A stretch of DNA of 64,000 nucleotides from an uncultured Gammaproteobacteria bacterium (GTDB taxonomy: Bacteria > Patescibacteriota > Microgenomatia > UBA8517), in NCBI GenBank assembly GCA_964617045.1, contig CAZTVZ010000002.1, positions 76,095-140,094 on the forward strand. Reading direction: 5' to 3'. Below, piece by piece: positions 8,818 through 24,707 of this stretch (the stretch's first letter is position 1; every line of letters starts with the position of its first letter). The notes under the pieces are model-generated. The model ran no database searches. It saw nothing but the letters and a program-made list of their open reading frames with translations, and had not been told where the DNA came from. A program made the position numbers and the translations under genes.

Positions 8818-10486
8818 AGATCTCCCGTATCTGTTTTTTATCCTGCTGTTGACACTTCCGGTATTCATTCGCTTAATAAGACCCGGCTATTTTGTGATGC
8901 AGGATGATCTGCAGGCATTTAGAACCCAGCAGATGGATAAGTGTTTTGAAGATAAGCAATTGCCTTGCAGGTGGGTTCCTGATGCGGGATACCAATACGG
9001 TTATCCTCAGTTTAATTATTATCCGCCATCCGTATATTACTTTAGTGCTTTACTTCATAGAGCGGGTTTCCAGTATATAGATGCAGTTAAGGCAATGTTT
9101 GTGTTGGGATACGTAGTGTCTGCAATTACGATGTATCTATTGGCAAGTTCGGTTTTTAAAAACAGATGGATAGGGTTTGTTTCTTCTCTTTTATATACTT
9201 ATATTCCCTACAAGGCCGTGGAGGTATATGTCAGAGGAGCCTTAAACGAATTTTGGGCTCTTTCCTTTTTCCCGCTTGTTCTTTGGGCATCATATAGATT
9301 AATAAAAAAGGACAAGAAAAAATATCTTCTCTGGTTATCTATTGCCATTGCACTTCTTTTGACGACACACTCACTAACGGCCATGATTTTTATTCCGTTT
9401 GCCGCAGTCTGGGTATTCTTTTGGATATTTCGATTTAAAAAAGAAGTATTCAATAAAAAATTGATTGCCTCCTTGCTTCTAGGTTTTGGTTTATCTGCTT
9501 TTTTTGTATTACCGATGATGTTGGAAAAACAGTATGTTCATGTAGATTCGGTTCTTTCTGGATATTTTGATTACAGGCAACACTTTGTATCACTATATAA
9601 ATTGTTTATCTCGAGAGAATGGGGATACGGTTCTTCAGGATTTCCCAACGAACTTCTTAACCTGTCGGTTGGTGTCGTTCAGTGGGGAGCTGGAATACTT
9701 GCAGTAATCGTAAGCATTCTAAACTTCAAAAAGAAAAACAAATCATATGCCTATCTCGGAATTACGTTGGGTCTAATGACGATTTTCTCCTTGTTCATGA
9801 TTCATATGAAATCCAGTTTTATTTGGACAATGCTACCATTTCTTAAATGGTTGCAATTCCCTTGGAGATTTCTTTCTATTTCAATTGTCTTACTTCCTGT
9901 GTTGGTCGGTGTTTTATTGCATTACACCGGCAAAGCAAAATACGTTATCGGTTCACTGCTTGTTGTCGGAGCAATATTGCTGAATATTCAATTTTTTAAA
10001 GAAAAAGAATGGTTAAACATTACGGATCAGGGCAAATTCTCCGGTCAATATTGGGAAAAACAACTGACAATAAGTATTTTTGATTATCTTCCAATATATG
10101 CGACTCTTCCTCCTGTGGAAAAAGCTCCCGCAGAGCCGGAAGTTTTGGAGGGTGTAGCCAAATTTGAGAATTACGAAAAAGGATCAAATTGGCAAAAAGG
10201 AAAAGTAAAAGTTGAAACCGAAAAGGCCCTTTTGAGAGCTCCGATATACGATTTTCCGGGAATGACTGTTTCTTCATCGGAAAAAATTGTTAAACATATA
10301 AATAATGACTGTCGGGGACAAGAGTTTTGTTTAGGGCTGGTAACTTTTGAACTTGAAAACGGAGACCATGATATTAAAATCGAACTAAAAGATACTCCGA
10401 TAAGAACAATCGGAAATTATTTATCGATATTTTCTGTTTTGTACCTTATTTTCCTTATACTTAAGAGAAATGATGACTTTAATTAA
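8792..10486 (+). CDS. Unclassified GT-C-like polytopic membrane protein (module copy 1 of 3)
   Basis: N-terminal TM then loop 'MQDDLQAFR...QLPCRWVPDAGYQYGYPQFNYYPPSVYY', 'YKAVEVYVRGALNEFWAL', 'REWGYGSSG', 'LQFPWRFLS'. About 12 TM segments, soluble C-terminal domain and a terminal TM anchor. Family uncertain (YfhO- or PTPS-related-like?). Confidence 0.45.
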   Translation: MKFLRKIRKDLPYLFFILLLTLPVFIRLIRPGYFVMQDDLQAFRTQQMDKCFEDKQLPCRWVPDAGYQYGYPQFNYYPPSVYYFSALLHRAGFQYIDAVKAMFVLGYVVSAITMYLLASSVFKNRWIGFVSSLLYTYIPYKAVEVYVRGALNEFWALSFFPLVLWASYRLIKKDKKKYLLWLSIAIALLLTTHSLTAMIFIPFAAVWVFFWIFRFKKEVFNKKLIASLLLGFGLSAFFVLPMMLEKQYVHVDSVLSGYFDYRQHFVSLYKLFISREWGYGSSGFPNELLNLSVGVVQWGAGILAVIVSILNFKKKNKSYAYLGITLGLMTIFSLFMIHMKSSFIWTMLPFLKWLQFPWRFLSISIVLLPVLVGVLLHYTGKAKYVIGSLLVVGAILLNIQFFKEKEWLNITDQGKFSGQYWEKQLTISIFDYLPIYATLPPVEKAPAEPEVLEGVAKFENYEKGSNWQKGKVKVETEKALLRAPIYDFPGMTVSSSEKIVKHINNDCRGQEFCLGLVTFELENGDHDIKIELKDTPIRTIGNYLSIFSVLYLIFLILKRNDDFN

Positions 10487-13400
10487 CAAATATTGGAGAT
10501 TAATTGTAATTACCCTTCTTGGGTTTGCAATTGCTCTACCACTACTAACAAAAGGACCTTTTGCCAATCACGACGAAATGAACCCGATTAGATTTTTGGC
10601 AATAAAAGATTGTATTGAAGACGGACAGTTTCCGTGTAGATGGTCAAAAGATTTAGGTTGGGGGAATGGGTTCCCGATATTCAATTATTATGCACCGGGA
10701 CCTTACTATTTGGGAGCTGTGCTTAGCGAAGTTGTAGGTTACATTAATGCAGAAAAATTATTGGTTTTATTTTCTTTGGTTGCCGGTGGAATGGGCATGT
10801 ATATATTTGTTAAAAAACTTTACAACGAAAACGCCGGGTTCGTTGCCGGTGTACTGTATACAATTGCTCCTTATAAAGCCGTAGATATTTATGTACGTGG
10901 TGCCTTGTCCGAAGCGATGGCACTAGCCATAGTACCGTTTCTATTCCATTTTGCTTATCTTCTTATCAAAGACAAAGAGAAAAAGTACTTTATTTCTTTT
11001 TCCATAACTCTGTTTTTCTTCTTAACAACTCACAACATAATGACGATACTCTTTATCCCGCTTCTTGCACTATTTTCGATAATCATTTTATTTAAAGAAG
11101 GATTGAAAAAGTTACCACTCCTCATTACATCCGGATTGTTGGGGGTTGGATTGTCGGCATTCTATCTATTACCAGCCTTTTTTGAAAAAAAACTTGTTAG
11201 AGTCGATACACTTACCGGAGACTATTATAATTTCCAGAACCATTTTGTATCCCTTAAGCAAATGTTTATTAGTAATTATTGGGGATACGGTTCTTCGGGG
11301 CCTGGACTTGCCGATGGAATGTCGTTCCAAGTCGGGTATGTTCATTGGGCAATTGCTTTAATTGCACTTCTTTTCATAGCAATTAGAGTAATCAACAAAA
11401 AAGTTGCTCTTCAGACCGTATTGTTTGGAATAGTATTTATTCTTTCCGTTTTTATGATGCATAACAAATCTGCCTTTATTTGGCAGATAATACCACTGCT
11501 TAATTATTTACAATTCCCGTGGAGGCTCCTATCGCTTGTTATATTTACGTCTTCGATTTTGGGGGGTTATGTTATAACCCAATTAAAAGGAAAAATTCTT
11601 GATGTTTCCATTATTCTTGTGTCGGTTATTGCGATAATAATTAATTTCAATTATTTCAAACCCGAAAAGTTTTATACCGAATATAATGATCAAAGTTTGT
11701 TTGTCGGAAAAGTGTGGGAAGATCAAAGAAGTGGAATTCTTCTTGATTACCTTCCTGTGGGAGCAATAGAAGCAAGGGAGCCTGCCTCTTCAGTACCATT
11801 AATCAGAGAGGGAGACGGAATTATCTATTCGTACGTCGTTAGATCAAATAGTTTTTCGTTTAAATATATTGCCCAGGAAAATTCATTGTTGGAAATACCC
11901 GTATACTATTTTCCCGAATGGGAGTTGAAAGTTGACGGAAAAGAGAAGGATATTATTAAAAGTGACGTGGGAAGGATCATGGTTGAATTGGAGAAGGGAA
12001 GTCATGAAATAAAAGGTGTTTTTGGGGATACTCCTCTAAGGGATTTCTCAAATTTGTTAAGTCTTCTGTCTTTCCTTGTCCTTGCATTTTTACTGCTCAG
12101 GAAAAGAGTAGAGAAGATAAATATCGATAAAAGGATTGTTGTATTGGCACTTGTATTATCGATTCCTGCTATCTGGAGTTTTATATCCAAGGGTTTATAC
12201 GGGTTTTCGGATGATTCACATATTGGTTGGATGTATGAAATGGATAGGGCAGTCAAGTCTTTCAAATTTCCACCCAGGTTTGTTCCCGACTTAAGCTACG
12301 GATTTGGATATCCCTTGTTTACATTTGTGTATCCTTTGCCTTTCTATCTCGGTGAAGTCTTTCATCTTCTTGGTATGACCCTTGTCGGGAGTTTCAAAAT
12401 GGTTTTGGCATTATCAATTCCCCTCTCAATGCTTGCAATGTACAAATTCCTTAGAGAGTTTATGAAGAAAGAATATTCATTATTGGGATCTGTGATATAT
12501 GTATATGCCCCATATCGGGCAACGGAACTATTTGTAAGGGGAGCGATAGGGGAGATAGTGGCATTTATCTTTATTCCACTTGTTGCGTGGTCTTTCGTCA
12601 AACTAACCAAAGAAAAAAACACAAAATGGATTGCGGCATCGGCATTATCTGTTGCAGCCCTAATTATGTCGCACAATATTATGGCATATATGTTTATGCC
12701 CTTTGCGCTTCTCCTCTTGGTTTTAAGAATTGTTTTCGTTTATCGTAACGATATATCTCAGTATGTTCGTGGATTTATATCAATAATTTTTGGACTTGTT
12801 ATTTCAATATATTTTTGGCTTCCTGCAATAGTGGAAAGCTCGCTGATGCAATACTCCACGGTATTTAATTATTTGGATCATTTTCCGACACTAAAACAAC
12901 TCGTTACTCCTTACTTCGGTCACGGAGCGTCTGTCCCCGGACCATATGACGGAATATCCTTCTATATTGGAGTAATTGGGTTATTTATTGCTCTCGTGGG
13001 AATAGTCCACTTTTTCTTAAAAAGAAATGACTATACCCGGGAGGAAAAAGTATTTGTTGTTTGGGGAATTATTATGTTAGGTGTTTCGGTGTTTATGATG
13101 AATCACCGATCAGCCTTTATCTGGGAAGCAATACCGCTGATTAAATACTTCCAATTCCCGTGGAGATTTTTGGTCCCCGTAATATTTTCTTTGCCGATAT
13201 TCCTAATTGCGTTTGAAAAAAATAGCCCTATTAAATACGCACCCGGGATTTTAGTTATCCTTACAATTCTTGTAAATTCTCAATATTTTATTCCGGAAAG
13301 TTTTTTGGGTAGAACCGATGATTATTATTTAAAAAGATTTGTTCCTTATCCGATTGCAAGCGAAGAGTACAAAACGACTTCCGAGGAGTATTTGAGATTG

Positions 13401-13754
13401 CCTCTTGGTCAAACTGAAAGACCAAAAGAAACAAGGCCTTTGGTTGAAGGAGCGAAAGGTGTTAGGGGAATTGTAAATCTGAATGCCTATGACACTATTA
13501 TATATACCGATTATCCTCAAAGTTTCGTCTTGAATTATAATAAGTATATGTATCCTGGATGGACCGCCCTTGTTGACGGTGTTCCGGCGGATATAAAAGT
13601 GGGAAGTCCTTACGGACAAATCTCATTGGATATTCCAAGAGGAGCACATAAAATTGAAATATATTATAAAGAGACACCATTCAGAACAATTCTGAACATT
13701 GTTTCTTTGGCAGGTTTTATAACTGCAATATATTTATTAGTACGCAAAAAATGA
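10470..13754 (+). CDS. Tandem-duplicated (fused) GT-C-like membrane protein, two modules of the same family as 8792..10486
   Basis: 1094 aa. Module 1 (aa about 1-545): 'NHDEMNPIRF...QFPCRWSKDLGWGNGFPIFNYYAPGPYY', 'YKAVDIYVRGALSEAMAL', 'GYGSSG', 'LQFPWRLLS'. Module 2 (aa about 550-1094): 'SDDSHIGWMYEMDRAV...FPPRFVPDLSYGFGYPLFTFVYPLPFY', 'YRATELFVRGAIGEIVAF', 'FQFPWRFLV'. The junction is in frame with no stop. Confidence 0.45.
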   Translation: MMTLINKYWRLIVITLLGFAIALPLLTKGPFANHDEMNPIRFLAIKDCIEDGQFPCRWSKDLGWGNGFPIFNYYAPGPYYLGAVLSEVVGYINAEKLLVLFSLVAGGMGMYIFVKKLYNENAGFVAGVLYTIAPYKAVDIYVRGALSEAMALAIVPFLFHFAYLLIKDKEKKYFISFSITLFFFLTTHNIMTILFIPLLALFSIIILFKEGLKKLPLLITSGLLGVGLSAFYLLPAFFEKKLVRVDTLTGDYYNFQNHFVSLKQMFISNYWGYGSSGPGLADGMSFQVGYVHWAIALIALLFIAIRVINKKVALQTVLFGIVFILSVFMMHNKSAFIWQIIPLLNYLQFPWRLLSLVIFTSSILGGYVITQLKGKILDVSIILVSVIAIIINFNYFKPEKFYTEYNDQSLFVGKVWEDQRSGILLDYLPVGAIEAREPASSVPLIREGDGIIYSYVVRSNSFSFKYIAQENSLLEIPVYYFPEWELKVDGKEKDIIKSDVGRIMVELEKGSHEIKGVFGDTPLRDFSNLLSLLSFLVLAFLLLRKRVEKINIDKRIVVLALVLSIPAIWSFISKGLYGFSDDSHIGWMYEMDRAVKSFKFPPRFVPDLSYGFGYPLFTFVYPLPFYLGEVFHLLGMTLVGSFKMVLALSIPLSMLAMYKFLREFMKKEYSLLGSVIYVYAPYRATELFVRGAIGEIVAFIFIPLVAWSFVKLTKEKNTKWIAASALSVAALIMSHNIMAYMFMPFALLLLVLRIVFVYRNDISQYVRGFISIIFGLVISIYFWLPAIVESSLMQYSTVFNYLDHFPTLKQLVTPYFGHGASVPGPYDGISFYIGVIGLFIALVGIVHFFLKRNDYTREEKVFVVWGIIMLGVSVFMMNHRSAFIWEAIPLIKYFQFPWRFLVPVIFSLPIFLIAFEKNSPIKYAPGILVILTILVNSQYFIPESFLGRTDDYYLKRFVPYPIASEEYKTTSEEYLRLPLGQTERPKETRPLVEGAKGVRGIVNLNAYDTIIYTDYPQSFVLNYNKYMYPGWTALVDGVPADIKVGSPYGQISLDIPRGAHKIEIYYKETPFRTILNIVSLAGFITAIYLLVRKK

Positions 13755-15013
13755 AACGATTTATCGCAATAATTCTTACAATAGGGATACTTTTAAGAGT
13801 AGGCTTGGCTTTCAGCACTTTCCATGCGGATGTTCAGGCTTTTGATTTTGCCGGTAAGGTAATTGCGGAAGGAAATGTCCTAAATTTCTACGATTATTTA
13901 TGGAATCTTCCAAAAGAGGACCCCATTTTGGAAGTATACCCTCCATATTTATTCAACTATCCTCCGATGGTTTATTTTTTCCTTGGAGGAATTTCCAGAT
14001 TAACCACATGGATGGTTGATCCGTTGATTCACAATAACTTTATCTTTGATTTCCCTTCAACTTTGGGAAATATTAATTTGAATATCCTTCTTTTAATGCT
14101 TAAGCTACCGTATTTTCCTTTTGACATTGCTATTGCGTATCTTCTGATGCGCATGTTTAGTGAAGAAAAGAAAAAGAAATGGATTTTCGCTCTTTGGATG
14201 TTTAATCCAATTAACCTATATGCCACTTACATGATGGGGCAATTTGATATTATACCTACGTTTTTGACGATAGCTGCTCTTTATCTTGTCGTTAAGAATA
14301 AAGAAAGGATTGAGAATAGTAATTTACTATTACCGGCAGCACTTCTTGGTCTTGGGGCAGCATTCAAGATATTTCCTGCATTATTTATTGTTCCCCTTGC
14401 AACTTTGAAGAACAGTTGGTTAGACAGAATAAAAATAATCGCCGTTGGTTTCGGAGTTTATTTTATGACTAATTTTCCGTTTATCTTTTCGAAAGGCTTT
14501 CGTGCAACGGCAATGCTTGCTAATCAAACAACAAAAAGTTTGTATGCACAGATACCAATATCGGGCGGAGAATCCATAATCTTGTTTTTGGCTTTGGCGG
14601 TATTTGCATATATTGTGTTTTGGGTTAAAAAGGTTTTACCTGAAGATTTGTGGAAAAGATTTTTTGTAATGATTTTACTGTTTTTTGTATTTACCCATTA
14701 TCATCCACAATGGTTTCTTTGGCTTACTCCATTTTTACTGATTGATTATGTATATTCCGGCAATAAACACCTGGTTCCGATTAAGATATCGCTTTTGAGC
14801 TTTTTAGGACTACTTACATTCTTTGATCCGGGACTAACGGTATGGTTGTTCGCACCCATAAATAAAGCGCTATACGGCATGTCGGATTTATGGACTCAAA
14901 TCGGAATTAAGCCGGACGTTAATTATGCCAGAAGTATTTTGCATACATTATTTGTCGGTTCTGCACTATATTATATGTACATTCATTTCCCAAGAATTAC
15001 GAAAGGCGATTGA
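13751..15013 (+). CDS. Polytopic membrane protein, putative GT-C (DUF2029/GT87-like?)
   Basis: ATGA overlap. 420 aa with about 10 TM segments. First loop 'FHADVQAFDFAGKV...YPPYLFNYPP'. Family assignment is weak. Confidence 0.3.
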   Translation: MKRFIAIILTIGILLRVGLAFSTFHADVQAFDFAGKVIAEGNVLNFYDYLWNLPKEDPILEVYPPYLFNYPPMVYFFLGGISRLTTWMVDPLIHNNFIFDFPSTLGNINLNILLLMLKLPYFPFDIAIAYLLMRMFSEEKKKKWIFALWMFNPINLYATYMMGQFDIIPTFLTIAALYLVVKNKERIENSNLLLPAALLGLGAAFKIFPALFIVPLATLKNSWLDRIKIIAVGFGVYFMTNFPFIFSKGFRATAMLANQTTKSLYAQIPISGGESIILFLALAVFAYIVFWVKKVLPEDLWKRFFVMILLFFVFTHYHPQWFLWLTPFLLIDYVYSGNKHLVPIKISLLSFLGLLTFFDPGLTVWLFAPINKALYGMSDLWTQIGIKPDVNYARSILHTLFVGSALYYMYIHFPRITKGD

Positions 15014-16986
15014 TGAACGTTACATTGGATATCTTAAAATTCTTTGCATTCTTCCTAATAGTATTTTTTATCCCGGGCTATGTACTTACGAGAAATGCGG
15101 ATATTAAATCAAAAGCAGGAAAGATATTTATTGCTACGGTATTGGGGTTTGCACTTTCAACGGTCACTTATTATCTTCACTCGGTTATTTTTTCTCTTTA
15201 CGTGATTATTCCTTCGATTATTTTTATCATTGGCGGGTATTACAAAGATTTCAGGGGTTTAAAACTACCCCAAAAGAAGGGTCACTTAATTATCTTGGGT
15301 TTAATTATTGCCCTTGGAACATTTTTCCAAAACAACTTAACCTTCAGAACGGGTCTTAATTACGAGTATGGAATCGGTTTTTGGAGTGCGCTTGCGCACG
15401 ATGGAGTTTGGCACCAGGCGCTAATTGCTCAGCTTACCAAAAATATTCCTCCTTTGAATCCCGCTTTGTCCGAATTTACGCTTACAAACTATCATTATTT
15501 TTACGATTTGCTTTTGGCGATAGTAAACAAAATTACTTTAATACCGATTGCCGATTTGGTTTATCGTTATTTTCCAATCATATTTTCTTCTCTTCTGGGA
15601 ATAGGAAGTTATCTTTTAACGGTTAAAATATTCAAAAAAGAAAGTGCAGGAATATTCGCAGCATATTTTTCCTATTTCGGAAGTAGCTTTGGGTGGATTG
15701 TCGAACTTTTTAGAGGAGGAGAAATTATTGCGGGCGAATCCAATTTTTGGGCCAACCAACCCGTTTCTCTAAACATCAATCCTCCATTCGCAATTTCACT
15801 AATATTTTTAATTACCGTCCTATATTTGTTTTCTCTTTATGAAGAAAAACGAGATTATTGGTTATTAGGACTTATGGCAATAATTGCCGGGTTAACAATT
15901 GAGTTTAAAGTATACGGAGGTTTAATTATTCTTTCTTCCTTGCTGGTTCTGGCAATTAAGAAGGCTTTATTTGATAAAGACAGGGTTTTACTGGTGTACG
16001 TATTGATTGCAATCGGTATTGCTGCCGGAGTTTTTATTCCCAATAGTAAGGGAAGTGCATCTTTTGTTACCCTTGTTCCTTTTTGGATTATTCACTCGAT
16101 GATAGATATTGTTGATCGGGTTGGTTGGTGGAGATTGTCTCTGTCGAGGACGGTCGGTTTGGCAGAAAAAGATTGGGTTAAATTTATTGGAGCCGAAGGT
16201 GTCGGATTAATACTGTTCATTTTGGGAAATATCGGGACAAGAATGATTGCTTTTGCGGCACTTCTTTTGATACCGGCAAAAGAATGGTTTAAAAACAATT
16301 CTTATCTGATTTTAATAATTGTTTCCGGAGCATCCGTACTTCCAACGTTGTTATTCGTTCAAAAATCAGACCCTTGGAATATTATTCAATTTACATATTA
16401 TTTTCTTTTTATCGCGGCTATTGTTGCCGCTTACGTTCTCTCGATATTTTTCGAAAAATCAAAAAAATGGGTAGTAATCGTTGGGTTGACGCTTTTATTT
16501 GTGATTACCCCGTTGAGTTCTTTGGGTTCATTCAGAAGTGGATTTCAGGGAAACCCGACATATTTGGATAAAGGCGAACTTGAAGCGTTGAATTATCTTA
16601 AAACGCAAGAAGATGGGGTGGTTCTTACATATCCGTACAATCAGTATCTCAGGTACAGTACCGAAAAAAGACCACTTCCTTTGTGGGCCTATCAAACCAG
16701 TGCATATGTATCAGCTTATTCTCAAAAAGTGACATACCTGGAAGATATGATGCAGCAGGGAATACTTGATGCAGACTTTAAAGACAGAATCAAAAAGATG
16801 GAAGACTTTTTTACCAATAATATGCTGCAACAAGGAGAGGACTCCTTTATTAAAGAAGCAAATATCACTTACGTATACATTCCGCAGGATTTAAGAAGAA
16901 TGGTTAACACCAAACTTCCTTCGGCAAAAATAATATTTGAGAACGAAGGGGCGGTAATATTCAAATATGACTTTACAACTAATTAA
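15013..16986 (+). CDS. Polytopic membrane protein, uncharacterized family (paralog A), putative GT-C-like
   Basis: ATG at 15013 (TGATG overlap). Motifs shared with 16967..18973: 'AHDGVWHQA', 'NYHYFYD', 'YRYFPIIFSSLLGIGSY', 'KKESAGI', 'FWANQ', 'QTSAYVSAYSQKVTY'. C-terminal soluble domain. Confidence 0.4.
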   Translation: MNVTLDILKFFAFFLIVFFIPGYVLTRNADIKSKAGKIFIATVLGFALSTVTYYLHSVIFSLYVIIPSIIFIIGGYYKDFRGLKLPQKKGHLIILGLIIALGTFFQNNLTFRTGLNYEYGIGFWSALAHDGVWHQALIAQLTKNIPPLNPALSEFTLTNYHYFYDLLLAIVNKITLIPIADLVYRYFPIIFSSLLGIGSYLLTVKIFKKESAGIFAAYFSYFGSSFGWIVELFRGGEIIAGESNFWANQPVSLNINPPFAISLIFLITVLYLFSLYEEKRDYWLLGLMAIIAGLTIEFKVYGGLIILSSLLVLAIKKALFDKDRVLLVYVLIAIGIAAGVFIPNSKGSASFVTLVPFWIIHSMIDIVDRVGWWRLSLSRTVGLAEKDWVKFIGAEGVGLILFILGNIGTRMIAFAALLLIPAKEWFKNNSYLILIIVSGASVLPTLLFVQKSDPWNIIQFTYYFLFIAAIVAAYVLSIFFEKSKKWVVIVGLTLLFVITPLSSLGSFRSGFQGNPTYLDKGELEALNYLKTQEDGVVLTYPYNQYLRYSTEKRPLPLWAYQTSAYVSAYSQKVTYLEDMMQQGILDADFKDRIKKMEDFFTNNMLQQGEDSFIKEANITYVYIPQDLRRMVNTKLPSAKIIFENEGAVIFKYDFTTN

Positions 16987-18973
16987 CACCCTATTGATGG
17001 GAGCACTTTTCCTGTTTATTTATTTCGGAGTTATATATCCCGTTGGTTATTTAATTGTTAGAAAATTCAACAAATTATTGAAACCGGTTGAGGTTTTTGG
17101 TCTTTCTATGGCAATATCCATCGTTCTATTTATAGGGATAGCGATTTTGTTCGGAATACTTAAAATTCGGTTTCTGGTTCTTCCGTTGGTGGTTGGAATT
17201 ACCCTTGCAACCTATTGGAAATATAGATTCCCTGTTATCGATTCAATTTTGGTTGTATTCAAAAATAAAATTCTGTTACTTCTTTCCGTAGTGGCGATTA
17301 TCGTTCAAGGAATAATCAATTTTCCCAGCGGGTATTTATATGGCAATGGATATCAATTTTGGAGTTCTCAGGGGAACGACGGATTGTGGCATGTTGCGGT
17401 AATGGAAGAAATTAAAAAGAGTATGCCGATAGAAAACCCGATATACTACGGAGAAAAATTATATAACTATCACTATTTGACCGACGTCTTTATGGGTGAA
17501 TTTGCTCGTTTGTTCCCGTCTTTTACCTCACTCGATTTGTACTTCAGATATTTCCCGATTGTTTTCTCTCTTCTTATCAGTATCGGCGCATATGCTTTCG
17601 TGAGTAGATGGAGTAAATCGGAAAGTGCGGGATATTGGGCAATATTTTTTTCCAGTCTTTCCGGCGGCTTTGGGTATATCGTTACGTTAATAAAAGAAGG
17701 AAGATTGTTTGCCGGAGAAACCATTTTCTGGGCTGCTCAGGGAAACACAATAATAGGGAATCCTCCCCATGCAGTTGCTTACGGTTTGCTGGCAATGTTT
17801 TTACTTTCGATCGCAATATATCTGGAAACAAGAAAGAAAGAAATACTGCTTCTTTCCATATTAACCGGTGCTTTTGTTGCTGGTTTTAAAGTATCCGGTG
17901 GATTTATCCTTTCTGCCGGAATAATTGCTGGAGGATTATTTGATTTTCTTGTTAACAGAAAAAAAGAGATGGTATATATTCCTGTGATTGTTGGTTTATT
18001 AAACTTCGTAACACTTAAGCTTATGACCAAGGGTGCAGATAGTTTTTTGATTTTCGAACCATGGTGGTTTGTCAGAACAACGATTGTTGCGGATGGAAGA
18101 GTCGGAATAATAGATATGGAATTAAGAAGGCAACATTATCTTTCTTTGGGAACTTTTAAAGCAACCTTAAGAGTAATACAACTTGAAGTTGAAGCCTTCC
18201 TTATGTTTTTTGTCGGCAATATGAGTACGCGAATAATCGGATTCTTTCTTATCTTTGCAAATGGGTTTAAGGGGGTTGGAAAGTTCTTTAAAGATACGAT
18301 GAGTATCATTTTAATTTCTTCCGCCTTGGCGGGATTGGGAATAGTACTTCTATTTGTTCAGAAGGGAATAGCATACAATCTTATTCAGTTTTTCCAATAC
18401 TCTATTTTGATAATGGGTTTTTTGAGTGCCGCAGCAATGCCAATTATTTTGAAAAGGATTAAACCAAAAATAATTAAAACTGCATTTGCTTTTTTGATAA
18501 TAATAATTTCCGTACCGACTGTTATTGGTAATGTTGTCGAATTTTACGGAAAAGGACGATCAGCATTGGCCGTCGTCAGCAACAGCGAAATTGAAGCCTT
18601 AGAATATTTAAAAACATCAACACCAAATGATTCGGTAATTCTTACATACCCATTCGATGGAAATGCCCATTATGGGTATAAAGAACAACCATGGCCGATA
18701 TCAGTGTGGTACTCGACAGCTTACGTTTCTGCACTTTCCTCTAGAAAAACATATTTCAGCAATGAAGGGCAGGTTGATATATTAGGTATTCCAATTAAAG
18801 AAAGAAGAGAAGAAGTACTGGCCTTTTTCAATGACCCGAAGATTGATAGAAAACAGTATCTGAATGATAAAGGAATAGATTATGTTTACGTTCTTAAAAA
18901 AGATTATCCCAAACAGTTGGATTTGGAAATATATTATGAGAGTAGAGACGTTATAATTTACTGGAATATATGA
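16967..18973 (+). CDS. Polytopic membrane protein, uncharacterized family (paralog B), putative GT-C-like
   Basis: 'GNDGLWHVA', 'NYHYLTD', 'FRYFPIVFSLLISIGAY', 'KSESAGY', 'FWAAQ', 'STAYVSALSSRKTY'. Tandem paralog of 15013..16986. Confidence 0.4.
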   Translation: MTLQLINTLLMGALFLFIYFGVIYPVGYLIVRKFNKLLKPVEVFGLSMAISIVLFIGIAILFGILKIRFLVLPLVVGITLATYWKYRFPVIDSILVVFKNKILLLLSVVAIIVQGIINFPSGYLYGNGYQFWSSQGNDGLWHVAVMEEIKKSMPIENPIYYGEKLYNYHYLTDVFMGEFARLFPSFTSLDLYFRYFPIVFSLLISIGAYAFVSRWSKSESAGYWAIFFSSLSGGFGYIVTLIKEGRLFAGETIFWAAQGNTIIGNPPHAVAYGLLAMFLLSIAIYLETRKKEILLLSILTGAFVAGFKVSGGFILSAGIIAGGLFDFLVNRKKEMVYIPVIVGLLNFVTLKLMTKGADSFLIFEPWWFVRTTIVADGRVGIIDMELRRQHYLSLGTFKATLRVIQLEVEAFLMFFVGNMSTRIIGFFLIFANGFKGVGKFFKDTMSIILISSALAGLGIVLLFVQKGIAYNLIQFFQYSILIMGFLSAAAMPIILKRIKPKIIKTAFAFLIIIISVPTVIGNVVEFYGKGRSALAVVSNSEIEALEYLKTSTPNDSVILTYPFDGNAHYGYKEQPWPISVWYSTAYVSALSSRKTYFSNEGQVDILGIPIKERREEVLAFFNDPKIDRKQYLNDKGIDYVYVLKKDYPKQLDLEIYYESRDVIIYWNI

Positions 18974-20574
18974 GAAAAGCTTTCTTGCTGGGGATAATAT
19001 TGTTGTTTGCTTTTATAGTAAGAATCGTGGGGATAAACGAAGTTCCTTTGTATGGCGATGAACTTACAATTACCCAGGATGCATATTCTATTCTTCAAAC
19101 AGGTAAAGACGTTACCGGAAAAACACTACCGCTAACATTTTCAATGGGTGCCGGCAGGCCCGGAGGATATGTTTATTTTTCTGTTCCTTTTGTTTCACTT
19201 TTTGGACCAGGCGCGTATGGAGTTAGAATGCTCTCAATTATTTCCGGAGTGGGTATTGTTCTTGCAGGATATTTATTGAGTAGAAAACTCTTTTCAGAAA
19301 AAATTGCGATAATTACGGCATTTTTAACTGCGATATCCCCTTGGGCAATTAATTTAAGTAGGGGAGGATATGAGGCGAACTTTGCCCTCATGCTTTGCAT
19401 GTTTGCTATATACGCTTTTCTAGAGGCAAAGGGGAAACCGATTTGTTATCCGATATCGGCAGCACTATTGGGTCTTACGATTTTTACTTATCCCACTTTC
19501 AAATTGACGATTCCCCTATTCATCATCCCCCTTCTTTGGTATGTGGGAGGAATTAAAGAAATATTTGTTAAAAAGAATATCTTCTATCTTTTGGTTTCAA
19601 TTATTATCGGCATAAGCTTTATCGGATTGTCGATAAATGAAACGTTTAACAACAATTCCGAAGAAAGATTCGGCAGGATTAATATTTTTTCCTCTGAGGA
19701 TATCCAGAGAAACATAACGGAGGAAGTAATAAACGAAAGGAGAATTGTGGATGTATCATATGCTGACAGGTTGTTCCACAACAAGGTCATCAAAAATGTC
19801 GAGTATTTTATTGAGAATTACTTGGATAACTTTTCGATTCAATATCTTTTTACGAAGGGAGACGGTAATCCTCGGCACAACATGACCCAGACTGGTGTCC
19901 TGTTTACGGTAGAAATATTAACACTATTGCTTGGTCTGTATGCAATTTCGCAAAAAGAGAAAAAGGGAATGATAATGCTTCTTTCGTGGGTTTTGATTAC
20001 TCCGATTGCAACTTCCATTGTCGGGGTTCCCCACTCTTTAAGAAACGCATTTATGTTTCCGGCTCTTTCAATGATATCTGCATATGGTGTTTTTCTGTTA
20101 AGCAGTAACAAGAGAAAAATAGTCTTTACTCTGTTTGTGCTTGGACTATTTGTTCAGTTTATTTTCCAAATGGAGAGGTTGTATCTGGTTTCGGCAAAGG
20201 AATATGAAAAATCTTGGTCTTATCCTGCAAAAAGAGCTTCGGAAATTGCCGCATCGGAAACAGATAGATACGACCATGTAATTCTTTCGGACCGAATCGA
20301 TTCAGTGGAGTATGCGTATCCGGTATATGCAAGGGTGGATTCCAAGTTGGTTCAGGAGCAAAATCTAAACACTTCGTTAATCGGAAGCCTTCCTTTAAAA
20401 ACTTACGGAAATGTAAGCATTGGAAGAATTCCCGAAGGAGAATTGCCGAAATTTATCGATTCTATTCCGGGATCCGTTTTGTTTATCGGAAGTGAATACT
20501 ACGATATTAAATCGGGAGAAGTAATTAAATTTACAGATCCTATGCTAAATCTGTCGATTGTGCGAAAAGAATAA
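18970..20574 (+). CDS. GT-C glycosyltransferase, PMT_2/GT39-like (protein O-mannosyltransferase-like)
   Basis: ATGA overlap. First loop 'PLYGDELTITQDAYSILQTGKD' (DE motif), 'GVRMLSIISGVGIVLAGYLLSRKLF'. Shares the C-terminal 'FTKGDGNPRH' motif with 21410.. and 23053... Confidence 0.55.
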   Translation: MRKAFLLGIILLFAFIVRIVGINEVPLYGDELTITQDAYSILQTGKDVTGKTLPLTFSMGAGRPGGYVYFSVPFVSLFGPGAYGVRMLSIISGVGIVLAGYLLSRKLFSEKIAIITAFLTAISPWAINLSRGGYEANFALMLCMFAIYAFLEAKGKPICYPISAALLGLTIFTYPTFKLTIPLFIIPLLWYVGGIKEIFVKKNIFYLLVSIIIGISFIGLSINETFNNNSEERFGRINIFSSEDIQRNITEEVINERRIVDVSYADRLFHNKVIKNVEYFIENYLDNFSIQYLFTKGDGNPRHNMTQTGVLFTVEILTLLLGLYAISQKEKKGMIMLLSWVLITPIATSIVGVPHSLRNAFMFPALSMISAYGVFLLSSNKRKIVFTLFVLGLFVQFIFQMERLYLVSAKEYEKSWSYPAKRASEIAASETDRYDHVILSDRIDSVEYAYPVYARVDSKLVQEQNLNTSLIGSLPLKTYGNVSIGRIPEGELPKFIDSIPGSVLFIGSEYYDIKSGEVIKFTDPMLNLSIVRKE

Positions 20575-20596
20575 CAATCTGTTATTATCTTCCCAA

Positions 20597-21337
20597 ATGA
20601 AGAGAAACTCCAAAGTTGTTATAGTAATGCCGGCTTATAATGCCCAAAAAACGGTTAGGAATACTTTCAAAGAAATTCCTCCCAAATTCAGGAAACACAT
20701 AATACTTGTTGATGATAATTCAAAAGATTCCACTGTTAATGTTGCGAAGAAGTTGGGGATTAAAGTCTTTGAACATACCAACAATATCGGTTACGGCGGT
20801 AATCAAAAGACTTGTTATTGGGAGGCTCTGAAATTGAATCCGGATGTAATTGTAATGCTTCACCCTGATTATCAATACGACGCAACCCTTATTGAAGATC
20901 TGATAGACCCTATCCTTAAAGGAAAACGTGATTATATGTTTGGCAGCAGAATAAATAGTCGAGGACAAGCACTCAAAGGCGGAATGCCAATGCTAAAATA
21001 CATACTCAACCGAATTGATACCATTATCGAAAATATACTGTTGGGAGTTAATTTCAGTGAACATTTTTCCGGTTTTCGGGCGTATTCCAAAAAACTTCTT
21101 AAAAGAGTTCCTTTTCAGAGATTTTCCAACGATTTTGTTTTTGATCAACAAATTAAAGTGTCCGCAATCAGTTATGGCATGAAAATCGGAGAAATTCCTA
21201 TTCCTACGCGATATCACGAAAAATCTTCTTCAATTAATTATCTTAAGGGTGCAAAGTTTTTAATTGAAACTTATATTGTTATTTTCCTCTTTATGCTTCA
21301 CAAATCGGGAATACTAAAGTCAAGGTTGTTTAAATGA
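20597..21337 (+). CDS. GT2 polyprenol-phosphate glycosyltransferase (DPM1/GtrB-like sugar-phosphate-lipid synthase)
   Basis: ATG at 20597 (the track's GTG at 20558 lies inside the upstream gene). 'VVIVMPAYNAQKT', 'ILVDDNSKDST', 'FGSR', 'SGFRAYSKKLL'. No C-terminal TM domain. Confidence 0.6.
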   Translation: MKRNSKVVIVMPAYNAQKTVRNTFKEIPPKFRKHIILVDDNSKDSTVNVAKKLGIKVFEHTNNIGYGGNQKTCYWEALKLNPDVIVMLHPDYQYDATLIEDLIDPILKGKRDYMFGSRINSRGQALKGGMPMLKYILNRIDTIIENILLGVNFSEHFSGFRAYSKKLLKRVPFQRFSNDFVFDQQIKVSAISYGMKIGEIPIPTRYHEKSSSINYLKGAKFLIETYIVIFLFMLHKSGILKSRLFK

Positions 21338-21409
21338 TTAATTACGAGATACTCTTGAAAACACCATTTCTCAGCCATTTAGAGCCTTTTTGTATTAAAA
21401 TAGAATAGT

Positions 21410-23056
21410 ATGAAATCTAAACTGATTCAGTGGTTGCTTGTTACGGCAATTCTGCTTATTGGTTTTGCTGCAAGATTTTACAAAGTAACCGAAGTTCCTC
21501 CGTCATTGAATTGGGATGAGACATCTATTGCATACAACGCTTATTCGATTCTAACCTCAGGCAAGGACGAGTGGGGAGTTAGTTTCCCTTTAAATTTCAA
21601 ATCATACGGTGAATACAAATTACCGGTGCAAATATATGCTTCTATTCCTGGTATTTTTGTATTTGGACTTAATGAACTGGGGGTAAGAATAACTCCAATT
21701 GTTTACGGCACCCTCACCATTCTTCTCTTGTATTTTTTGGCGAAAGAACTGTTCGATAAAAAAGTTGCCTTGATATCCTCTTTCTTTTTAGCAATATCAC
21801 CCTGGCACATACAACTTACCAGGGCTTCGTTTGAATCCTCGTTTTCCGTATTATGGGTTCTGCTCGGACTACTTCTTCTTGTCAAAGGATTGAAAAAACC
21901 GTGGCTGTGGGTTTTATCCGTAATCCCATTTGCAATATCCGTTTATACATATAACAGTGCAAGAATATTCACACCCCTTATCATAATTGCTTTTGGTATT
22001 ATCTATTTCAAAAAAGTAATTCCCCATGTCAAACAAATTGTTGTATCGGGATTGTTGTTTTTTGGTTTAATGGCTCCAATTATTCTTTCGATATTCACGG
22101 GAGAAGCAGCTGCCAGATATAAGTTGGTTAGTGTTACGGACGAGAAGGGTCTAATACCGAGAATCGAACAGCAAAGAAACCTTTCAACATATCCCAAAGT
22201 GATAACAAATTTAATTCACAACAGATACACATACGTTGGTTATTATTCGATCAGAAACTATGTTTCTCATTTCGCTCCTGATTTCTTGTTTATTTCAGGG
22301 GCCGGTCATAAACAACATCATCCACAAAAAGTCGGAGAAATGTTTTTGATTCAAGCACCATTTGTAATCTGGGGAATCGTGCAACTGATAAGAAAGAAAA
22401 ATAAATACAACGGATTATTATTTGCTTGGTTATTGTTAACCTTTGTTCCCGTGTCTTTAACAAACGATAGTATTCCTCACGCGCTAAGAACCGTAATCGC
22501 AGCACCTATTTACCAAATATTTACAGCAGTTGGAATTGTTGAGCTTTTCAATTTATTAAAAGGCAAACGATTAATAGTTGCCTCTCTGATGTTGGGAATA
22601 GCAACGATTATTAGTTTCTATCTTTATTACCACCATTTAATTGTCGATTATCCCAGATTGTATTCCCAAGCTTGGCAATATGGCTATAAACAGGTTGTGG
22701 AATATATATCCGATCATGAAGACGAATATGATTTGGTGGTGTTTTCCAGATCCTATGGTGAGCCGCACATGTTTACATTATTTTTTAAGATGTACGACCC
22801 CGAAAGATATCAGAAAGCGGATAAAGTGATTCAGGTGGATCCTAACGATTGGATTAAAATATACAGTTTTGATAAATACAGGTTCCCGGATCTGAGCGAA
22901 CCGGGAACAATGTACAAAGATCTTGTTAAAGAAAACCCGGGTAAAGAGATATTATTTATCGGTAAACACGAAGACTTTGTTGACGGTCAAAAAGTACTTC
23001 TTAACGTTAAATTTTTGGATGGGCAGGATGCCTTCGACATCGTGGACAATAAATGA
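21410..23056 (+). CDS. GT-C glycosyltransferase, PMT_2/GT39-like (paralog 1)
   Basis: 'VPPSLNWDETSIAYNAYSILTSGKDEWG' DE motif, 'FGLNELGVR', 'ISGAGHKQHHP'. About 50% identical over the N-terminus to 23053..24666. Confidence 0.55.
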   Translation: MKSKLIQWLLVTAILLIGFAARFYKVTEVPPSLNWDETSIAYNAYSILTSGKDEWGVSFPLNFKSYGEYKLPVQIYASIPGIFVFGLNELGVRITPIVYGTLTILLLYFLAKELFDKKVALISSFFLAISPWHIQLTRASFESSFSVLWVLLGLLLLVKGLKKPWLWVLSVIPFAISVYTYNSARIFTPLIIIAFGIIYFKKVIPHVKQIVVSGLLFFGLMAPIILSIFTGEAAARYKLVSVTDEKGLIPRIEQQRNLSTYPKVITNLIHNRYTYVGYYSIRNYVSHFAPDFLFISGAGHKQHHPQKVGEMFLIQAPFVIWGIVQLIRKKNKYNGLLFAWLLLTFVPVSLTNDSIPHALRTVIAAPIYQIFTAVGIVELFNLLKGKRLIVASLMLGIATIISFYLYYHHLIVDYPRLYSQAWQYGYKQVVEYISDHEDEYDLVVFSRSYGEPHMFTLFFKMYDPERYQKADKVIQVDPNDWIKIYSFDKYRFPDLSEPGTMYKDLVKENPGKEILFIGKHEDFVDGQKVLLNVKFLDGQDAFDIVDNK

Positions 23057-24666
23057 AAATTATTTCGAAAATCATTTTACTTTTGATCATTCTTTCGGGA
23101 ATATTTTTGAGATTTTATAAATTGGAAAGTGTTCCCCCGTCGTTATCATGGGATGAAGCATCTTTTTCTTATAATGCATACACAATTGCGAACTGGGGCA
23201 AAGACGAATGGGGAAAAGTACTTCCCTTTGCTTTCAAATCGTTTGGAGAGTACAAAAACCCGGTTGATATATATATCGCAGTACCCTTCATTAAAGTATT
23301 TGGCCTTAACGAATTGGGAACCAGATTCCCGGCGGCATTGTTTGGAGCGGTAAACATCTTACTAGTCTATTTATTGGGAAAAAGACTTTTCAAAAACGAA
23401 GTCGTTGGTCTTTTTGCTGCATTTTCTTTTGCCATTTCACCATATAACATTCAATTTTCCAGACACCATCATGAACTTAATATTGCTTTGTTTTTCTATC
23501 TCCTTGGTCTTTGGTCTATCATCGGTGCAATTAATAAAGACAAGGTAAAAGGAATGATCTTGGGTTTTGTCAGTTTGGCTATTCCTCTTCTAACATATAA
23601 TGCCGCCAAGATAATTATTCCTCTTACGGTGTTGGGACTCTCAATTATATATTTCAAATATTTTATTAAACATTTAAAGTATTCGTTCGTTGCGGGAATA
23701 ATAGTGCTTGGCATATTCCTCTTTACTTTTTTTGGAGGAGGTTTGTCTGGCAGATCCAGATTATCCCAGGTTGCATTTAAACAGACAGATATCGAACAAA
23801 CATATTTATACAAGAAAACAAAAATTAGAAGGTTGGGACAAATAGAACTTGTTTTCAAGCAATATCCTTTGCATTTTTCAAGCGAATATCTTCTTGAAAG
23901 AGGAGACAAAAACTATAGACATTCAACAGGTGTGATAGGTGAGTATTATAAAATGGACGTTTTTTTGATGCTTCTCGGATTGGGTTATCTGGGATACCTG
24001 ATAATAAAAAAGAAATCGAAAGAAGCACTCCTTTTGTTGGGGGTTATTCTTATTGCCCCTCTTCCTTCTTCTATTGCCAGTGAGGCACCACATGCAGGAA
24101 GAACTATGTTTATGAACGGTTCTTGGCATATCCTGGTCGGTTTGGGATTTATGTTTCTTGTTTCCCAATTAAAACAAAAATTGGTTAAATGGTTGGTTAT
24201 CGGTCTACTGTTGGCAGGTTATGGATTTCAAATGTACGGATATCTGGATTTTCTTTTCAACGATTATGCGAAAAAATATGCAATTGATTGGCAGTACGGA
24301 ATGAAACAGATCGTCGAAACAATTAAAAAACAGGATCCCGAATCCGTACAAAGCGTATATATGACAATAGACAGATGTCAGCCACACATATTCTTTTTGT
24401 ATTATCTCGGTACCGACGTAAATTCGTACAATAAAACAATGATTGTAAATGAAGGACCGAAAAGCGGATGCGAAATAATTAATTCTTTCGAAAAATACAA
24501 TTTCGGAACATGGGATTTCGTGTGGTCCAGACCAATTCAGGGTGTTTATTATGTTTTAACACCAAATGAATATTCGGGACTTGCACACATCAACGATTTC
24601 ACCGTTATTGAAAAGATTCAATATCCTGACGGATCGGATGCATATTTTATCGTTACTTCCTACTGA
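23053..24666 (+). CDS. GT-C glycosyltransferase, PMT_2/GT39-like (paralog 2)
   Basis: ATGA overlap. 'VPPSLSWDEASFSYNAYTIANWGKDEWG', 'FGLNELGTR', 'ERGDKNYRHS'. Confidence 0.55.
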   Translation: MKIISKIILLLIILSGIFLRFYKLESVPPSLSWDEASFSYNAYTIANWGKDEWGKVLPFAFKSFGEYKNPVDIYIAVPFIKVFGLNELGTRFPAALFGAVNILLVYLLGKRLFKNEVVGLFAAFSFAISPYNIQFSRHHHELNIALFFYLLGLWSIIGAINKDKVKGMILGFVSLAIPLLTYNAAKIIIPLTVLGLSIIYFKYFIKHLKYSFVAGIIVLGIFLFTFFGGGLSGRSRLSQVAFKQTDIEQTYLYKKTKIRRLGQIELVFKQYPLHFSSEYLLERGDKNYRHSTGVIGEYYKMDVFLMLLGLGYLGYLIIKKKSKEALLLLGVILIAPLPSSIASEAPHAGRTMFMNGSWHILVGLGFMFLVSQLKQKLVKWLVIGLLLAGYGFQMYGYLDFLFNDYAKKYAIDWQYGMKQIVETIKKQDPESVQSVYMTIDRCQPHIFFLYYLGTDVNSYNKTMIVNEGPKSGCEIINSFEKYNFGTWDFVWSRPIQGVYYVLTPNEYSGLAHINDFTVIEKIQYPDGSDAYFIVTSY

Positions 24667-24707
24667 CAATCTTCCAATTCCATAATATTGTCGTATAATT
24701 GGCCATA

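Follow-up and report, generated by a model that had tools for sequence, protein, structure and literature searches.

Several membrane glycosyltransferases of the GT-C_A type have solved structures: STT3/PglB/AglB (GT66), the C-mannosyltransferase DPY19, ArnT (GT83), the arabinofuranosyltransferases AftA, AftD, and AftB, and Pmt1/2/4 (GT39). The type is recognised by two juxtamembrane helices (JM1 and JM2) in the outer loop that joins TM1 to TM2, a conserved and essential Asp at the JM1 tip, and a kinked TM3 (PMC12041299). Three-component extracytoplasmic glycosylation combines a polyprenyl-P-sugar synthase, a flippase, and a GT-C transferase (PMC11127046). Systems of this kind are GtrA/GtrB/Gtr*, the GT136 system (Kelly et al. 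2024, PMC11127046), ArnC/ArnD/ArnT, and the mycobacterial PpgS/Rv3632/Rv3779. A literature search found no paper pairing GT-C enzymes or glycosyltransferases with Patescibacteria, CPR, or Microgenomates.

Here, I analysed two adjacent genes, A and B, lying in a 64-kb stretch of DNA (the window). The window holds glycan-synthesis genes throughout: at least 14 GT-C-type genes, Wzx flippase genes (not adjacent to A), AglJ/PpgS-like GT2 genes, and a GT2 + DUF2304 gene pair, while no GtrA-type flippase gene was seen among the ORFs of at least 150 aa and in one gap. No tRNA or Rfam elements were found in it. The pair and its neighbours are arranged as follows.

13751..15013, + strand: upstream GT87-like GT-C gene (Pfam GT87, E=5.4e-9), whose stop codon overlaps the ATG of A by 1 nt (TGA/ATG at 15013)
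15013..16986, + strand: paralog A, 657 aa from the ATG at 15013, or 658 aa from an alternative TTG start at 15010
16967..18973, + strand: paralog B, 668 aa, overlapping A by 20 nt
18970..20574, + strand: downstream PMT_2-type GT-C gene (Pfam PMT_2, E=5.9e-11), with an ATGA overlap with B at 18970
20558..21337, + strand: small GT2 gene (Pfam GT2), whose best NCBIfam matches are polyprenyl/dolichyl-phosphate sugar synthases (AglJ, PpgS, and Dol-P-hexose transferase), all below the family cut-offs

The ATG start of A at 15013 is also used by independent gene calls on other contigs. The small GT2 is, judging from its sequence, a likely maker of a lipid-P-sugar donor. The first-pass annotation had described A and B as a tandem paralog pair of an uncharacterized family, placed between GT-C genes, and the arrangement above is as it had said. 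A BLASTP alignment of A and B extends over 641 residues with 30% identity and 50% positives (E=1e-73); on this alignment, the two are judged to be true paralogs with a similarity far beyond chance. All six motif blocks quoted in that annotation were recovered at equivalent alignment positions: AHDGVWH/GNDGLWH, NYHYF/NYHYL, KESAGI/SESAGY, FWANQ/FWAAQ, YRYFPIIFSSLLGIGSY/FRYFPIVFSLLISIGAY, and QTSAYVSAYSQKVTY/STAYVSALSSRKTY (A/B). Residues kept family-wide occur in most of these blocks. Across the whole family, the two clades share an identical residue, kept at 90% or more, in 53 alignment columns; these take in all candidate catalytic residues, and both A and B carry all 53.

Is this a known family? 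Scans of A and B against Pfam and NCBIfam gave nothing significant, and searches of PDB sequences and profiles gave no match even at E<=10, in agreement with the description as uncharacterized. Below the cut-off, Pfam offered DUF6541, DUF2964, and VKGC. DUF6541 (PF20176) is of comparable length (a 646-position model), but its local match to B 515-568 is weak (E=0.0016, 17.2 bits against a 29-bit cut-off), occurs in 1 of 40 family members, and spans no more than the final TM helix and the beginning of the C-terminal domain. None of the 40 members matched PF13231 (PMT_2) at E<=0.1 in the current Pfam, nor was PF02366 matched at that threshold, and hhalign likeness was confined to the C-terminus, which leaves the pair outside the PMT/PMT_2/ArnT-like group (GT39/GT83). 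Specifically, hhalign of A1 against an alignment of 11 PMT_2 paralogs covered B 482-647 (probability 91.7%, E=7.7e-7), so that the profile-level likeness of B to its PMT_2-type neighbours lies in the last TM helix and the C-terminal domain only. Two B-type homologs bear the automatic UniRef name 'Glycosyltransferase RgtA/B/C/D-like domain-containing protein'. Membership in YfhO/PTPS_related (PF09586, PF10131) found no footing either (hhalign probability 3.4%, no Pfam match). No Pfam match to STT3 (GT66, PF02516) was seen among the family members, and an oligosaccharyltransferase identity was rejected because WWDxG occurs in 0 of 85 family sequences; A has WWR and B has WWF, both in a mid-protein loop. 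Overall, in the Pfam, NCBIfam, PDB-profile, and hhalign comparisons, the TM core could not be tied by sequence to a characterised GT-C family.

The family comprises 1812 representatives at 50% identity, and has so far turned up in Microgenomates and other Patescibacteria (CPR). Among the 246 homologs of B, the named ones come from Daviesbacteria, Microgenomates, and Berkelbacteria. A lies at the base of the A clade and aligns with the C-terminal half of a 1141-aa Daviesbacteria protein at 39% identity (E=6e-139). A recent local duplication was rejected, since identity is higher between A and such long proteins from other genomes (39%) than between A and B (30%). Most A-type relatives have a fused extracytoplasmic domain with a glycoside-hydrolase/deacetylase fold (3lm3, E=5.5e-15; CE4 deacetylases, 1e-7 to 1e-4), which points to a carbohydrate substrate. 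This fusion recalls ArnD and the GalNAc-to-GalN step. A itself lacks the domain, and tblastn did not find it elsewhere in the window.

The genome scan used two B-type peptide patterns and therefore favours close relatives. At least two family members are present in 36 of the 45 related loci, which belong to Daviesbacteria and other Microgenomates/Patescibacteria. In 24 loci, an A-type and a B-type gene (two B-type genes in L028) lie on one strand and touch or overlap, the gap being -8 to +16 nt; five more hold a divergently oriented pair at a distance of 38-70 nt, and in seven the two genes are split by others. Nine loci have a single member, some of them truncated or fragmented, while some genomes have three. 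Most of the 45 loci repeat one gene order: yfhO-like genes (two or three), (GT87), Wzx, A-type, B-type, PMT_2, GT2, GT2. In most loci, the Wzx/MOP flippase gene immediately precedes the A-type gene, with which it is fused in P0159, and a PMT_2-like gene comes after the B-type gene. The pair thus accompanies GT-C and DPM1-like GT2 genes across related loci, a co-occurrence that the first-pass annotation had proposed to check. Judged by these comparisons, the A/B split is ancient and syntenic across Microgenomates.

The fold evidence consists of an AlphaFold (AF2) model of one of the two paralogs, B, with a pLDDT of 92.2 and a pTM of 0.92. In a Foldseek search against the PDB, the best 25 matches are all GT-C_A proteins (E 1.2e-8 to 9e-3, probability 1.00), led by STT3 (1.2e-8), DPY19 (1.7e-8), AglB (2e-7), and PglB (2.7e-6), with a weaker group of AftA (1e-3), AftD (2.5e-3), and ArnT (7e-3). 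The similarity is one of overall fold: TMt reaches 0.52 at most, and TM-scores on query length are just 0.38-0.46. The best matches are oligosaccharyltransferases, an observation that is counted against a lipid-P-monosaccharide donor; oligosaccharyltransferases use lipid-PP-oligosaccharide donors. The matches after these have E>0.3 and probability <0.15, except for a weak one to Pmt4, which is also GT-C. A transporter identity was rejected on these scores, as transporter folds gave E>0.3, probability <=0.14, and a TM-score of about 0.1. No WaaL, Wzy, or SEDS structure (GT-C_B) is among the listed matches, and the conserved loop lies near the N-terminus of the core, unlike the long catalytic loop of GT-C_B, which is expected close to the C-terminus. 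The following parts of the proteins were delimited.

16967..17266, + strand: B residues 1-100, accessory N-terminal extension with three predicted TM helices and a cytoplasmic amphipathic helix (model helices 2-37, 40-64, 68-86, and 88-99)
17318..17527, + strand: B residues 118-187, predicted first external loop of the GT-C core (DSSP of the model, conservation, codons checked)
17378..17380, + strand: codon of D138 of B (codons checked)
15400..15402, + strand: codon of D131 of A (658-aa numbering), the equivalent of B D138, in the A motif HDGVWH (alignment, conservation, codons checked)
17702..17761, + strand: B residues 246-265, predicted second external loop (conservation, K/R bias, codons checked)
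18548..18970, + strand: B residues 528-668, predicted C-terminal extracytoplasmic alpha/beta domain (model secondary structure)

In the model, the first external loop contains a beta-hairpin and the helices 135-151 (JM1) and 170-182 (JM2), and is flanked by the TM helices 101-115 and 188-215. D138 is the fourth residue of JM1. It and its A counterpart D131 are invariant in 40 sequences and kept at 90% or more in both clades; the other invariant residues of this loop are the rest of D138-G-x-W141-H142, N167-Y-H169, and D173. TM3 is split into the helices 219-231 and 236-244 with the invariant G233-S-F-G236 between them. By its position in the secondary structure and its conservation, D138 (D131 in A) is the probable counterpart of the catalytic Asp of GT-C_A enzymes. 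The second external loop has a K/R content of 2.9% and carries G250-E251-x-x-F254-W255-x-x-Q258 and N265, with P266-P267 right after; both clades keep these residues at 90% or more, and the loop is a candidate for a second acidic and substrate-binding site. In the 85 sequences, the K+R share is 23-43% in the putative inside loops and 3-12% in the short outside loops, and all the conserved polar residues were placed outside because of this bias. The N-terminus is predicted to be outside as well, since the N-terminal extension has three TM helices. This extension is missing from family members of about 550 aa, and many relatives begin at profile position ~95-103, directly with the TM helix ahead of the Asp loop.

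Taken at the level of the model, the pair belongs in fold class to the GT-C_A glycosyltransferases, a link that the sequences do not give. B is thus predicted to be a GT-C_A-type membrane glycosyltransferase of the B clade, and A one of the A clade, without the N-terminal deacetylase-fold domain of most of its relatives. The first-pass annotation had not recognised the motifs as those of any named GT-C or transporter family, and its impression of a non-GT-C protein holds for the sequence and fails for the predicted fold; likewise, a match to a well-characterised family, which it had named as refuting, was found for the superfamily fold and not for any family. Setting the pair apart from GT-C enzymes, as it had implied, finds no support in the model. 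The enzymatic role that it had favoured, with the Asp/His loop at its centre, is likely; this loop would be the canonical first external GT-C loop with a catalytic-type Asp at the JM1 tip.

The pair resembles the solved GT-C_A enzymes in overall fold, in a TM1 followed by the JM1/JM2 loop with an invariant Asp at the JM1 tip, in the kinked TM3, in conserved polar residues on the outer face, in a C-terminal extracytoplasmic domain, and in having flippase genes and polyprenyl-P-sugar synthase-like GT2 genes as genomic neighbours. In contrast, its TM core has no detectable sequence similarity to them, TM-scores are only ~0.4-0.5, WWDxG is absent, and the family has motifs of its own (DGxWH, NYH, GSFG, GExxFWAxQ, NPP, and PWW) and an extra N-terminal extension of three TM helices. 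The PMT_2 neighbours (PF13231, 'RgtA/B/C/D-like') starting at 18970, 21410, and 23053 are in the same operon and of the same GT-C class, whereas their loop-1 motif is DE/DD close to TM1 and that of the pair's family is DG-WH about 20 residues past the TM helix. As in three-component systems, the window has AglJ/PpgS-like GT2 genes and a GT2 gene paired with DUF2304; unlike them, the cluster is no three-gene module, with its many GT-C-type genes and no GtrA-type gene seen.

I consider it quite likely that A and B, whose lines parted long ago, belong to an unnamed and sequence-distinct family of integral-membrane glycosyltransferases with the GT-C_A fold; they would use a lipid-phosphate donor and a glycan acceptor and divide the labour between them. 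Each would have the canonical 11-TM GT-C core preceded by the family-specific extension. In this core, a TM helix would lead into the extracytoplasmic loop with the two JM helices, where D138 or D131 at the first tip would be the probable catalytic base; the kinked third helix, further external loops bearing E251, R194, K308, and R388, and the outside C-terminal domain would follow. Each enzyme would most likely move a sugar from a polyprenyl-phosphate donor to a cell-surface glycan. Donor synthesis would fall to the AglJ/PpgS-like GT2 enzymes encoded in the same operon, with outward flipping as the next step. The two proteins may form two different, probably consecutive, linkages in a conserved assembly line with many GT-C enzymes.

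A and B may instead be an obligate heteromeric GT-C enzyme, like Pmt1-Pmt2 or EmbA-EmbB, forming one complex for one or a processive reaction. This is somewhat unlikely. The 20-nt overlap of the two genes, the 24 abutting or overlapping pairs with the five divergent ones, the retention of both lineages after an ancient duplication, and the presence of all conserved residues in both paralogs agree with it; the subunits of known GT-C heterodimers likewise both keep the conserved residues. However, nine loci have a single member, seven have separated genes, some genomes have three members, and adjacency is equally expected for consecutive steps of a pathway, because nearly all genes here overlap.

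Transfer of a Wzx-flipped lipid-PP-oligosaccharide en bloc to protein or cell wall, in the manner of OST/PglB/AglB or as a Wzy/WaaL substitute, is rather improbable. STT3, AglB, and PglB are among the top fold matches, Wzx/MOP genes directly precede (in P0159 join) the A-type gene in most loci, and the invariant outside residues D138, D173, D190, and E251 could, together with His, Arg, and Lys, make up a site for metal/pyrophosphate. Yet the OST-defining WWDxG and any Pfam STT3 match are missing, the C-terminal domain of about 140 aa is far smaller than OST periplasmic domains, WaaL, Wzy, and SEDS are not among the Foldseek matches, and Wzx is not adjacent in the window. Moreover, DPY19, a Dol-P-Man user, scores as high as STT3, and thus the fold ranking cannot tell the donor type. 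A combined possibility, which I regard as improbable, is a CPR-specific heteromeric GT-C machine of A and B that polymerises or ligates a Wzx-flipped lipid-PP-linked glycan en bloc onto the cell surface, with the fused deacetylase-fold domain of most relatives editing the glycan or a lipid-linked amino sugar. If so, Microgenomates would have in this pair their missing OST/Wzy/WaaL-equivalent, with a 3-TM module added to a GT-C_A scaffold. It is very improbable that A and B are non-enzymes serving as transporters, flippases, or scaffolds of the glycan pathway. They are polytopic proteins outside any assigned family, their N-terminal extension has no assigned role, and a GtrA-like flippase gene was not seen among the window's ORFs of at least 150 aa and in one gap, but transporter folds scored poorly and the outside loops hold clustered conserved polar residues as in GT-C enzymes, the JM1 tip carrying the Asp.

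With the GT-C_A glycosyltransferase family preferred, the family is new and the enzyme type is familiar (a GT-C using lipid-linked sugars), not a new kind of machine. It could seed a new CAZy GT family and reveals no new principle. The GT-C_A assignment, the candidate catalytic Asp, and the topology turn hypothetical proteins into testable enzymes. The family is a conserved core element beside a flippase, yet has no Pfam, NCBIfam, or CAZy-type assignment. CPR/Patescibacteria have genomes of about 1 Mb and are mostly uncultured and host-attached; surface glycans therefore probably mediate their lifestyle, and tiny uncultured Microgenomates bacteria keep the pair in their clusters of surface-sugar genes.

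Two genes for paralogous membrane proteins, here called A and B, lie next to each other in the window:

15010/15013..16986, + strand, ORF of A (657 aa from 15013), adjacent to B
16967..18973, + strand, ORF of B (668 aa), adjacent to A

The tandem paralog pair proposed in the first-pass annotation is thus present at this place. The two proteins are 30% identical over 641 residues (BLASTP, E=1e-73), and all six motif blocks noticed earlier were found at aligned positions of A and B. The TGA of the upstream GT87-like gene (15011-15013) has one base in common with the ATG of A at 15013, the 3' end of A overlaps B by 20 nt, and the stop codon of B overlaps with the ATG of the next gene as ATGA; the packing of these junctions is operon-like. 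On four other contigs with an identical B protein, independent gene calls likewise start A at the ATG, for a length of 657 aa.

Do A and B belong to a known family? Pfam gave no significant match for A, B, or 40 family members scanned one by one (the family being A, B, and their homologs, with A-type and B-type members in two clades), and NCBIfam gave none for A or B. Neither phmmer nor an hmmsearch with the family profile found a significant match among PDB sequences. Since all of these searches stayed below significance, the motifs belong to no named family, as had been suspected. The best Pfam result, DUF6541 on B 515-568, was sub-threshold (E=0.0016, 17.2 bits; cut-off 29). Two B-type homologs have the automatic UniRef name 'Glycosyltransferase RgtA/B/C/D-like domain-containing protein', and the current Pfam detects no PMT_2 in them at E<=0.1.

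B was modelled with AlphaFold2 on a 40-sequence family alignment (mean pLDDT 92.2, pTM 0.92). In a Foldseek search against PDB, the best 25 matches of the model were exclusively GT-C_A glycosyltransferases:

Yeast and human STT3, E=1.2e-8 and above
C. elegans DPY19, E=1.7e-8
AglB, E=2e-7
PglB, E=2.7e-6
AftA, E=1e-3
AftD, E=2.5e-3
ArnT, E=7e-3, TMt up to 0.52

A weak Pmt4 match came next, and no GT-C_B structure (WaaL, SEDS) was among the matches listed. The non-GT-C matches all had E>0.3, probability <=0.14, and a TM-score of about 0.1; on these fold scores, the reading of the proteins as transporters or scaffolds is rejected. The query-normalised TM-scores of the B model against GT-C_A structures are modest (0.38-0.46), which fits a distant relationship with domain rearrangements.

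GT-C_A enzymes have TM helices 1-7 in common, together with two juxtamembrane helices (JM1, JM2) that lie between TM1 and TM2; an Asp essential for catalysis is found at the JM1 tip, and TM3 is typically kinked into two helices (PMC12041299). The model of B, together with conservation for the invariant residues, shows the following elements (B numbering):

101-115, TM helix, followed by a beta-hairpin
135-151, helix with the invariant D138-G-x-W-H at its N-terminal tip
170-182, helix containing D173, with the invariant N167-Y-H169 just before it
188-215, TM helix starting with D190 and R194
219-231 and 236-244, split helix broken at the invariant G233-S-F-G236
G250-E251-xx-F-W-xx-Q258, N265-P-P, K308, P365-W-W367, and R388, in further predicted outside loops
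About 140 residues after the last TM helix, C-terminal alpha/beta domain

Across 85 family sequences, the Lys+Arg content is 23-43% in predicted cytoplasmic loops and 3-12% in predicted short outside loops. The topology is supported by this bias, which puts all conserved polar residues on the outer side. Three TM helices and an amphipathic helix make up the first ~100 residues of B, an accessory extension. In many ~550-aa relatives the sequence opens at profile position ~95-103 with the TM helix before the Asp loop, which gives them the canonical 'TM1 then catalytic loop' arrangement known from GT-C enzymes (PMC11127046). From its conservation and its position in the model, D138 would be the catalytic Asp. 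Both clades have the same residue at 53 columns conserved >=90%, including all candidate catalytic positions, and judging from the alignment neither A nor B looks like a pseudoenzyme.

When 11 PMT_2-type paralogs from the window and two related loci were compared with the family by profile-profile alignment, only the last TM helix and the C-terminal domain aligned (B 482-647; probability 91.7%, E=7.7e-7). The profile comparison with the YfhO/PTPS_related neighbours was negative (3.4%), and the OST-defining WWDxG motif was found in 0 of the 85 family sequences, so that membership in either family was rejected. The fold, hallmark, profile, and motif tests therefore place the family inside the GT-C_A fold class and outside each named family examined. 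It is best described as a sequence-distinct new family of this known fold class, whose specific features are the 3-TM extension, the conserved paralog pair, and the frequent fusion to a deacetylase-fold domain. Sequence-orphan enzymes continue to give rise to new GT-C families, GT136 (PMC11127046) and GT119-135 being examples. In the literature, I found no paper joining GT-C or glycosyltransferases with Patescibacteria, CPR, or Microgenomates.

Among 1.84 billion cluster representatives, the family profile matches 1812 proteins at E<=1e-3, of which 892 reach E<=1e-30. The named sources are Daviesbacteria, Microgenomates, Shapirobacteria, Woesebacteria, Berkelbacteria, Parcubacteria, and 'Patescibacteria group'. 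There are three architectures: ~650-690 aa, as in A and B; ~550 aa, without the 3-TM extension; and ~1015-1190 aa, where the GT-C module makes up the C-terminal half. Related genome loci (45 in all, with names of the form L001) were collected with two B-type peptide patterns only, a scan that says nothing on absence outside CPR. The same Microgenomates-type gene order occurs in MAGs labelled 'uncultured Gammaproteobacteria', 'Bathyarchaeia archaeon', 'Spirochaetia', and 'Clostridia' (L005, L006, L008-L010, L014, L021, L027, and others). The taxonomy given in these records is probably incorrect or a placeholder.

With the C-terminal half of a 1141-aa Daviesbacteria protein, which is encoded directly upstream of a B ortholog, A shares 39% identity (E=6e-139), against only 30% with the adjacent B. 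In a neighbour-joining tree of 85 domain sequences, two deep clades were resolved, A branching basally in the A clade and B nested in the B clade. The A/B split is ancient, and the pair is syntenic across Microgenomates. Two members abut or overlap on one strand in 24 of the 45 loci, A-type then B-type (L028 has two B-type genes); five loci have a divergent pair, seven have two members apart from each other within the locus, and nine have one member, several of the last being truncated or fragmented. In some genomes (L009, L017, L028, L036) a third member, from a separate sub-clade of the B superclade, lies near the pair, often on the opposite strand. The recurrent order is two or three YfhO/PTPS-like genes, (GT87), Wzx, A-type, B-type, PMT_2, GT2, GT2, GT4, and more PMT_2. 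The window departs from it on three points: A has no N-terminal domain of the kind described below, no Wzx gene adjoins the pair, and two YfhO-like genes form a single ORF. This fused gene is as follows:

10470..13754, + strand, 1094-aa ORF of two tandem PTPS_related/YfhO-like GT-C modules (two Pfam stretches)

Related loci have separate ~555-aa genes at the counterpart position, indicating gene fusion or stop-codon loss.

The N-terminal domain of A-type relatives is ~465 aa long with a signal-peptide-like start, and DUF3863 was weakly matched in 5 of 12 such domains. Its AlphaFold2 model (pLDDT 82.8) matched 3lm3, a 'putative glycoside hydrolase/deacetylase' (E=5.5e-15), CE4-type polysaccharide and peptidoglycan deacetylases (1e-7 to 1e-4), and, more weakly, GH38 and GH57 enzymes. 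A-type relatives that carry the domain are encoded in L001 (6568..9993), L002 (6570..10004), and about 30 further loci; the domain is a separate 696-aa gene in L043, and one 1639-aa relative (P0159) fuses a Wzx flippase, the deacetylase-fold domain, and the GT-C module. By tblastn, the domain is not encoded anywhere in the window. That a carbohydrate-processing domain is fused to A-type GT-C proteins speaks for glycans or lipid-linked amino sugars as the substrates of the family. Deacetylation is paired with GT-C transfer in ArnD-ArnT and in the mycobacterial PpgS/Rv3779 GalN pathway.

The window (1..64000) is devoted to glycan synthesis throughout, all on the + strand. It has at least 14 GT-C-type genes (10 PMT_2, two YfhO/PTPS-like including the double module, GT87, A, and B), many GT2 and GT4 genes, methyltransferases, one hexapeptide acyltransferase, and a mannose-1-phosphate guanylyltransferase-like gene; no tRNA or Rfam element was found in it. 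Flippase and putative donor-synthesis genes are:

7..1311 and 41325..42602, + strand, two Wzx/MOP flippases
20558..21337, + strand, GT2, two genes downstream of B
29056..29712, + strand, GT2
29709..30053, + strand, 114-aa DUF2304 membrane protein (E=6.9e-18), overlapping the preceding GT2

Both GT2 genes match polyprenyl/dolichyl-phosphate sugar synthases best (AglJ, PpgS, Dol-P-hexose transferase), with scores that stay under the equivalog cut-offs. The GT2-DUF2304 pair (29056..30053) resembles the mycobacterial PpgS/Rv3632 polyprenyl-P-sugar synthase pair and may supply donors to the GT-C enzymes. Elsewhere, a 489-aa membrane protein (55213..56682, + strand) has a sub-threshold Wzy_C (O-antigen ligase/polymerase) match (29.6 bits; cut-off 31.7) and is a possible polymerase or ligase of the cluster. 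The GC content is 0.285-0.32 across 30001..40000 versus ~0.36 elsewhere in the window; this stretch, where ORFs 33051 and 34012 have no Pfam match and 36088 and 36810 have weak ones, may be a variable or horizontally exchanged sub-cluster.

Beyond the fold, topology, conservation, and synteny shown for the family, a lipid-linked-sugar mechanism of three steps is best supported, with putative donor, acceptor, and stereochemistry. AglJ/PpgS-like GT2 enzymes would load sugars onto polyprenyl phosphate, the lipid-linked sugars would be flipped to the outside, and the JM1 Asp of A and of B would activate the acceptor hydroxyl of a surface glycan or glycoprotein, with A and B differing in the sugar or linkage that each adds. 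The conserved A/B coupling would also allow, but does not demand, that the two proteins form one heteromeric enzyme like Pmt1-Pmt2 or EmbA-EmbB. The top fold matches to STT3 and the Wzx adjacency suggest an OST- or ligase-like en bloc transferase; however, the family is without OST motifs and DPY19 scores equal to STT3.

If the genome is CPR-sized, the glycan supercluster takes up a very large share of it. The finding is of use in work on the CPR cell surface and in CAZy classification.
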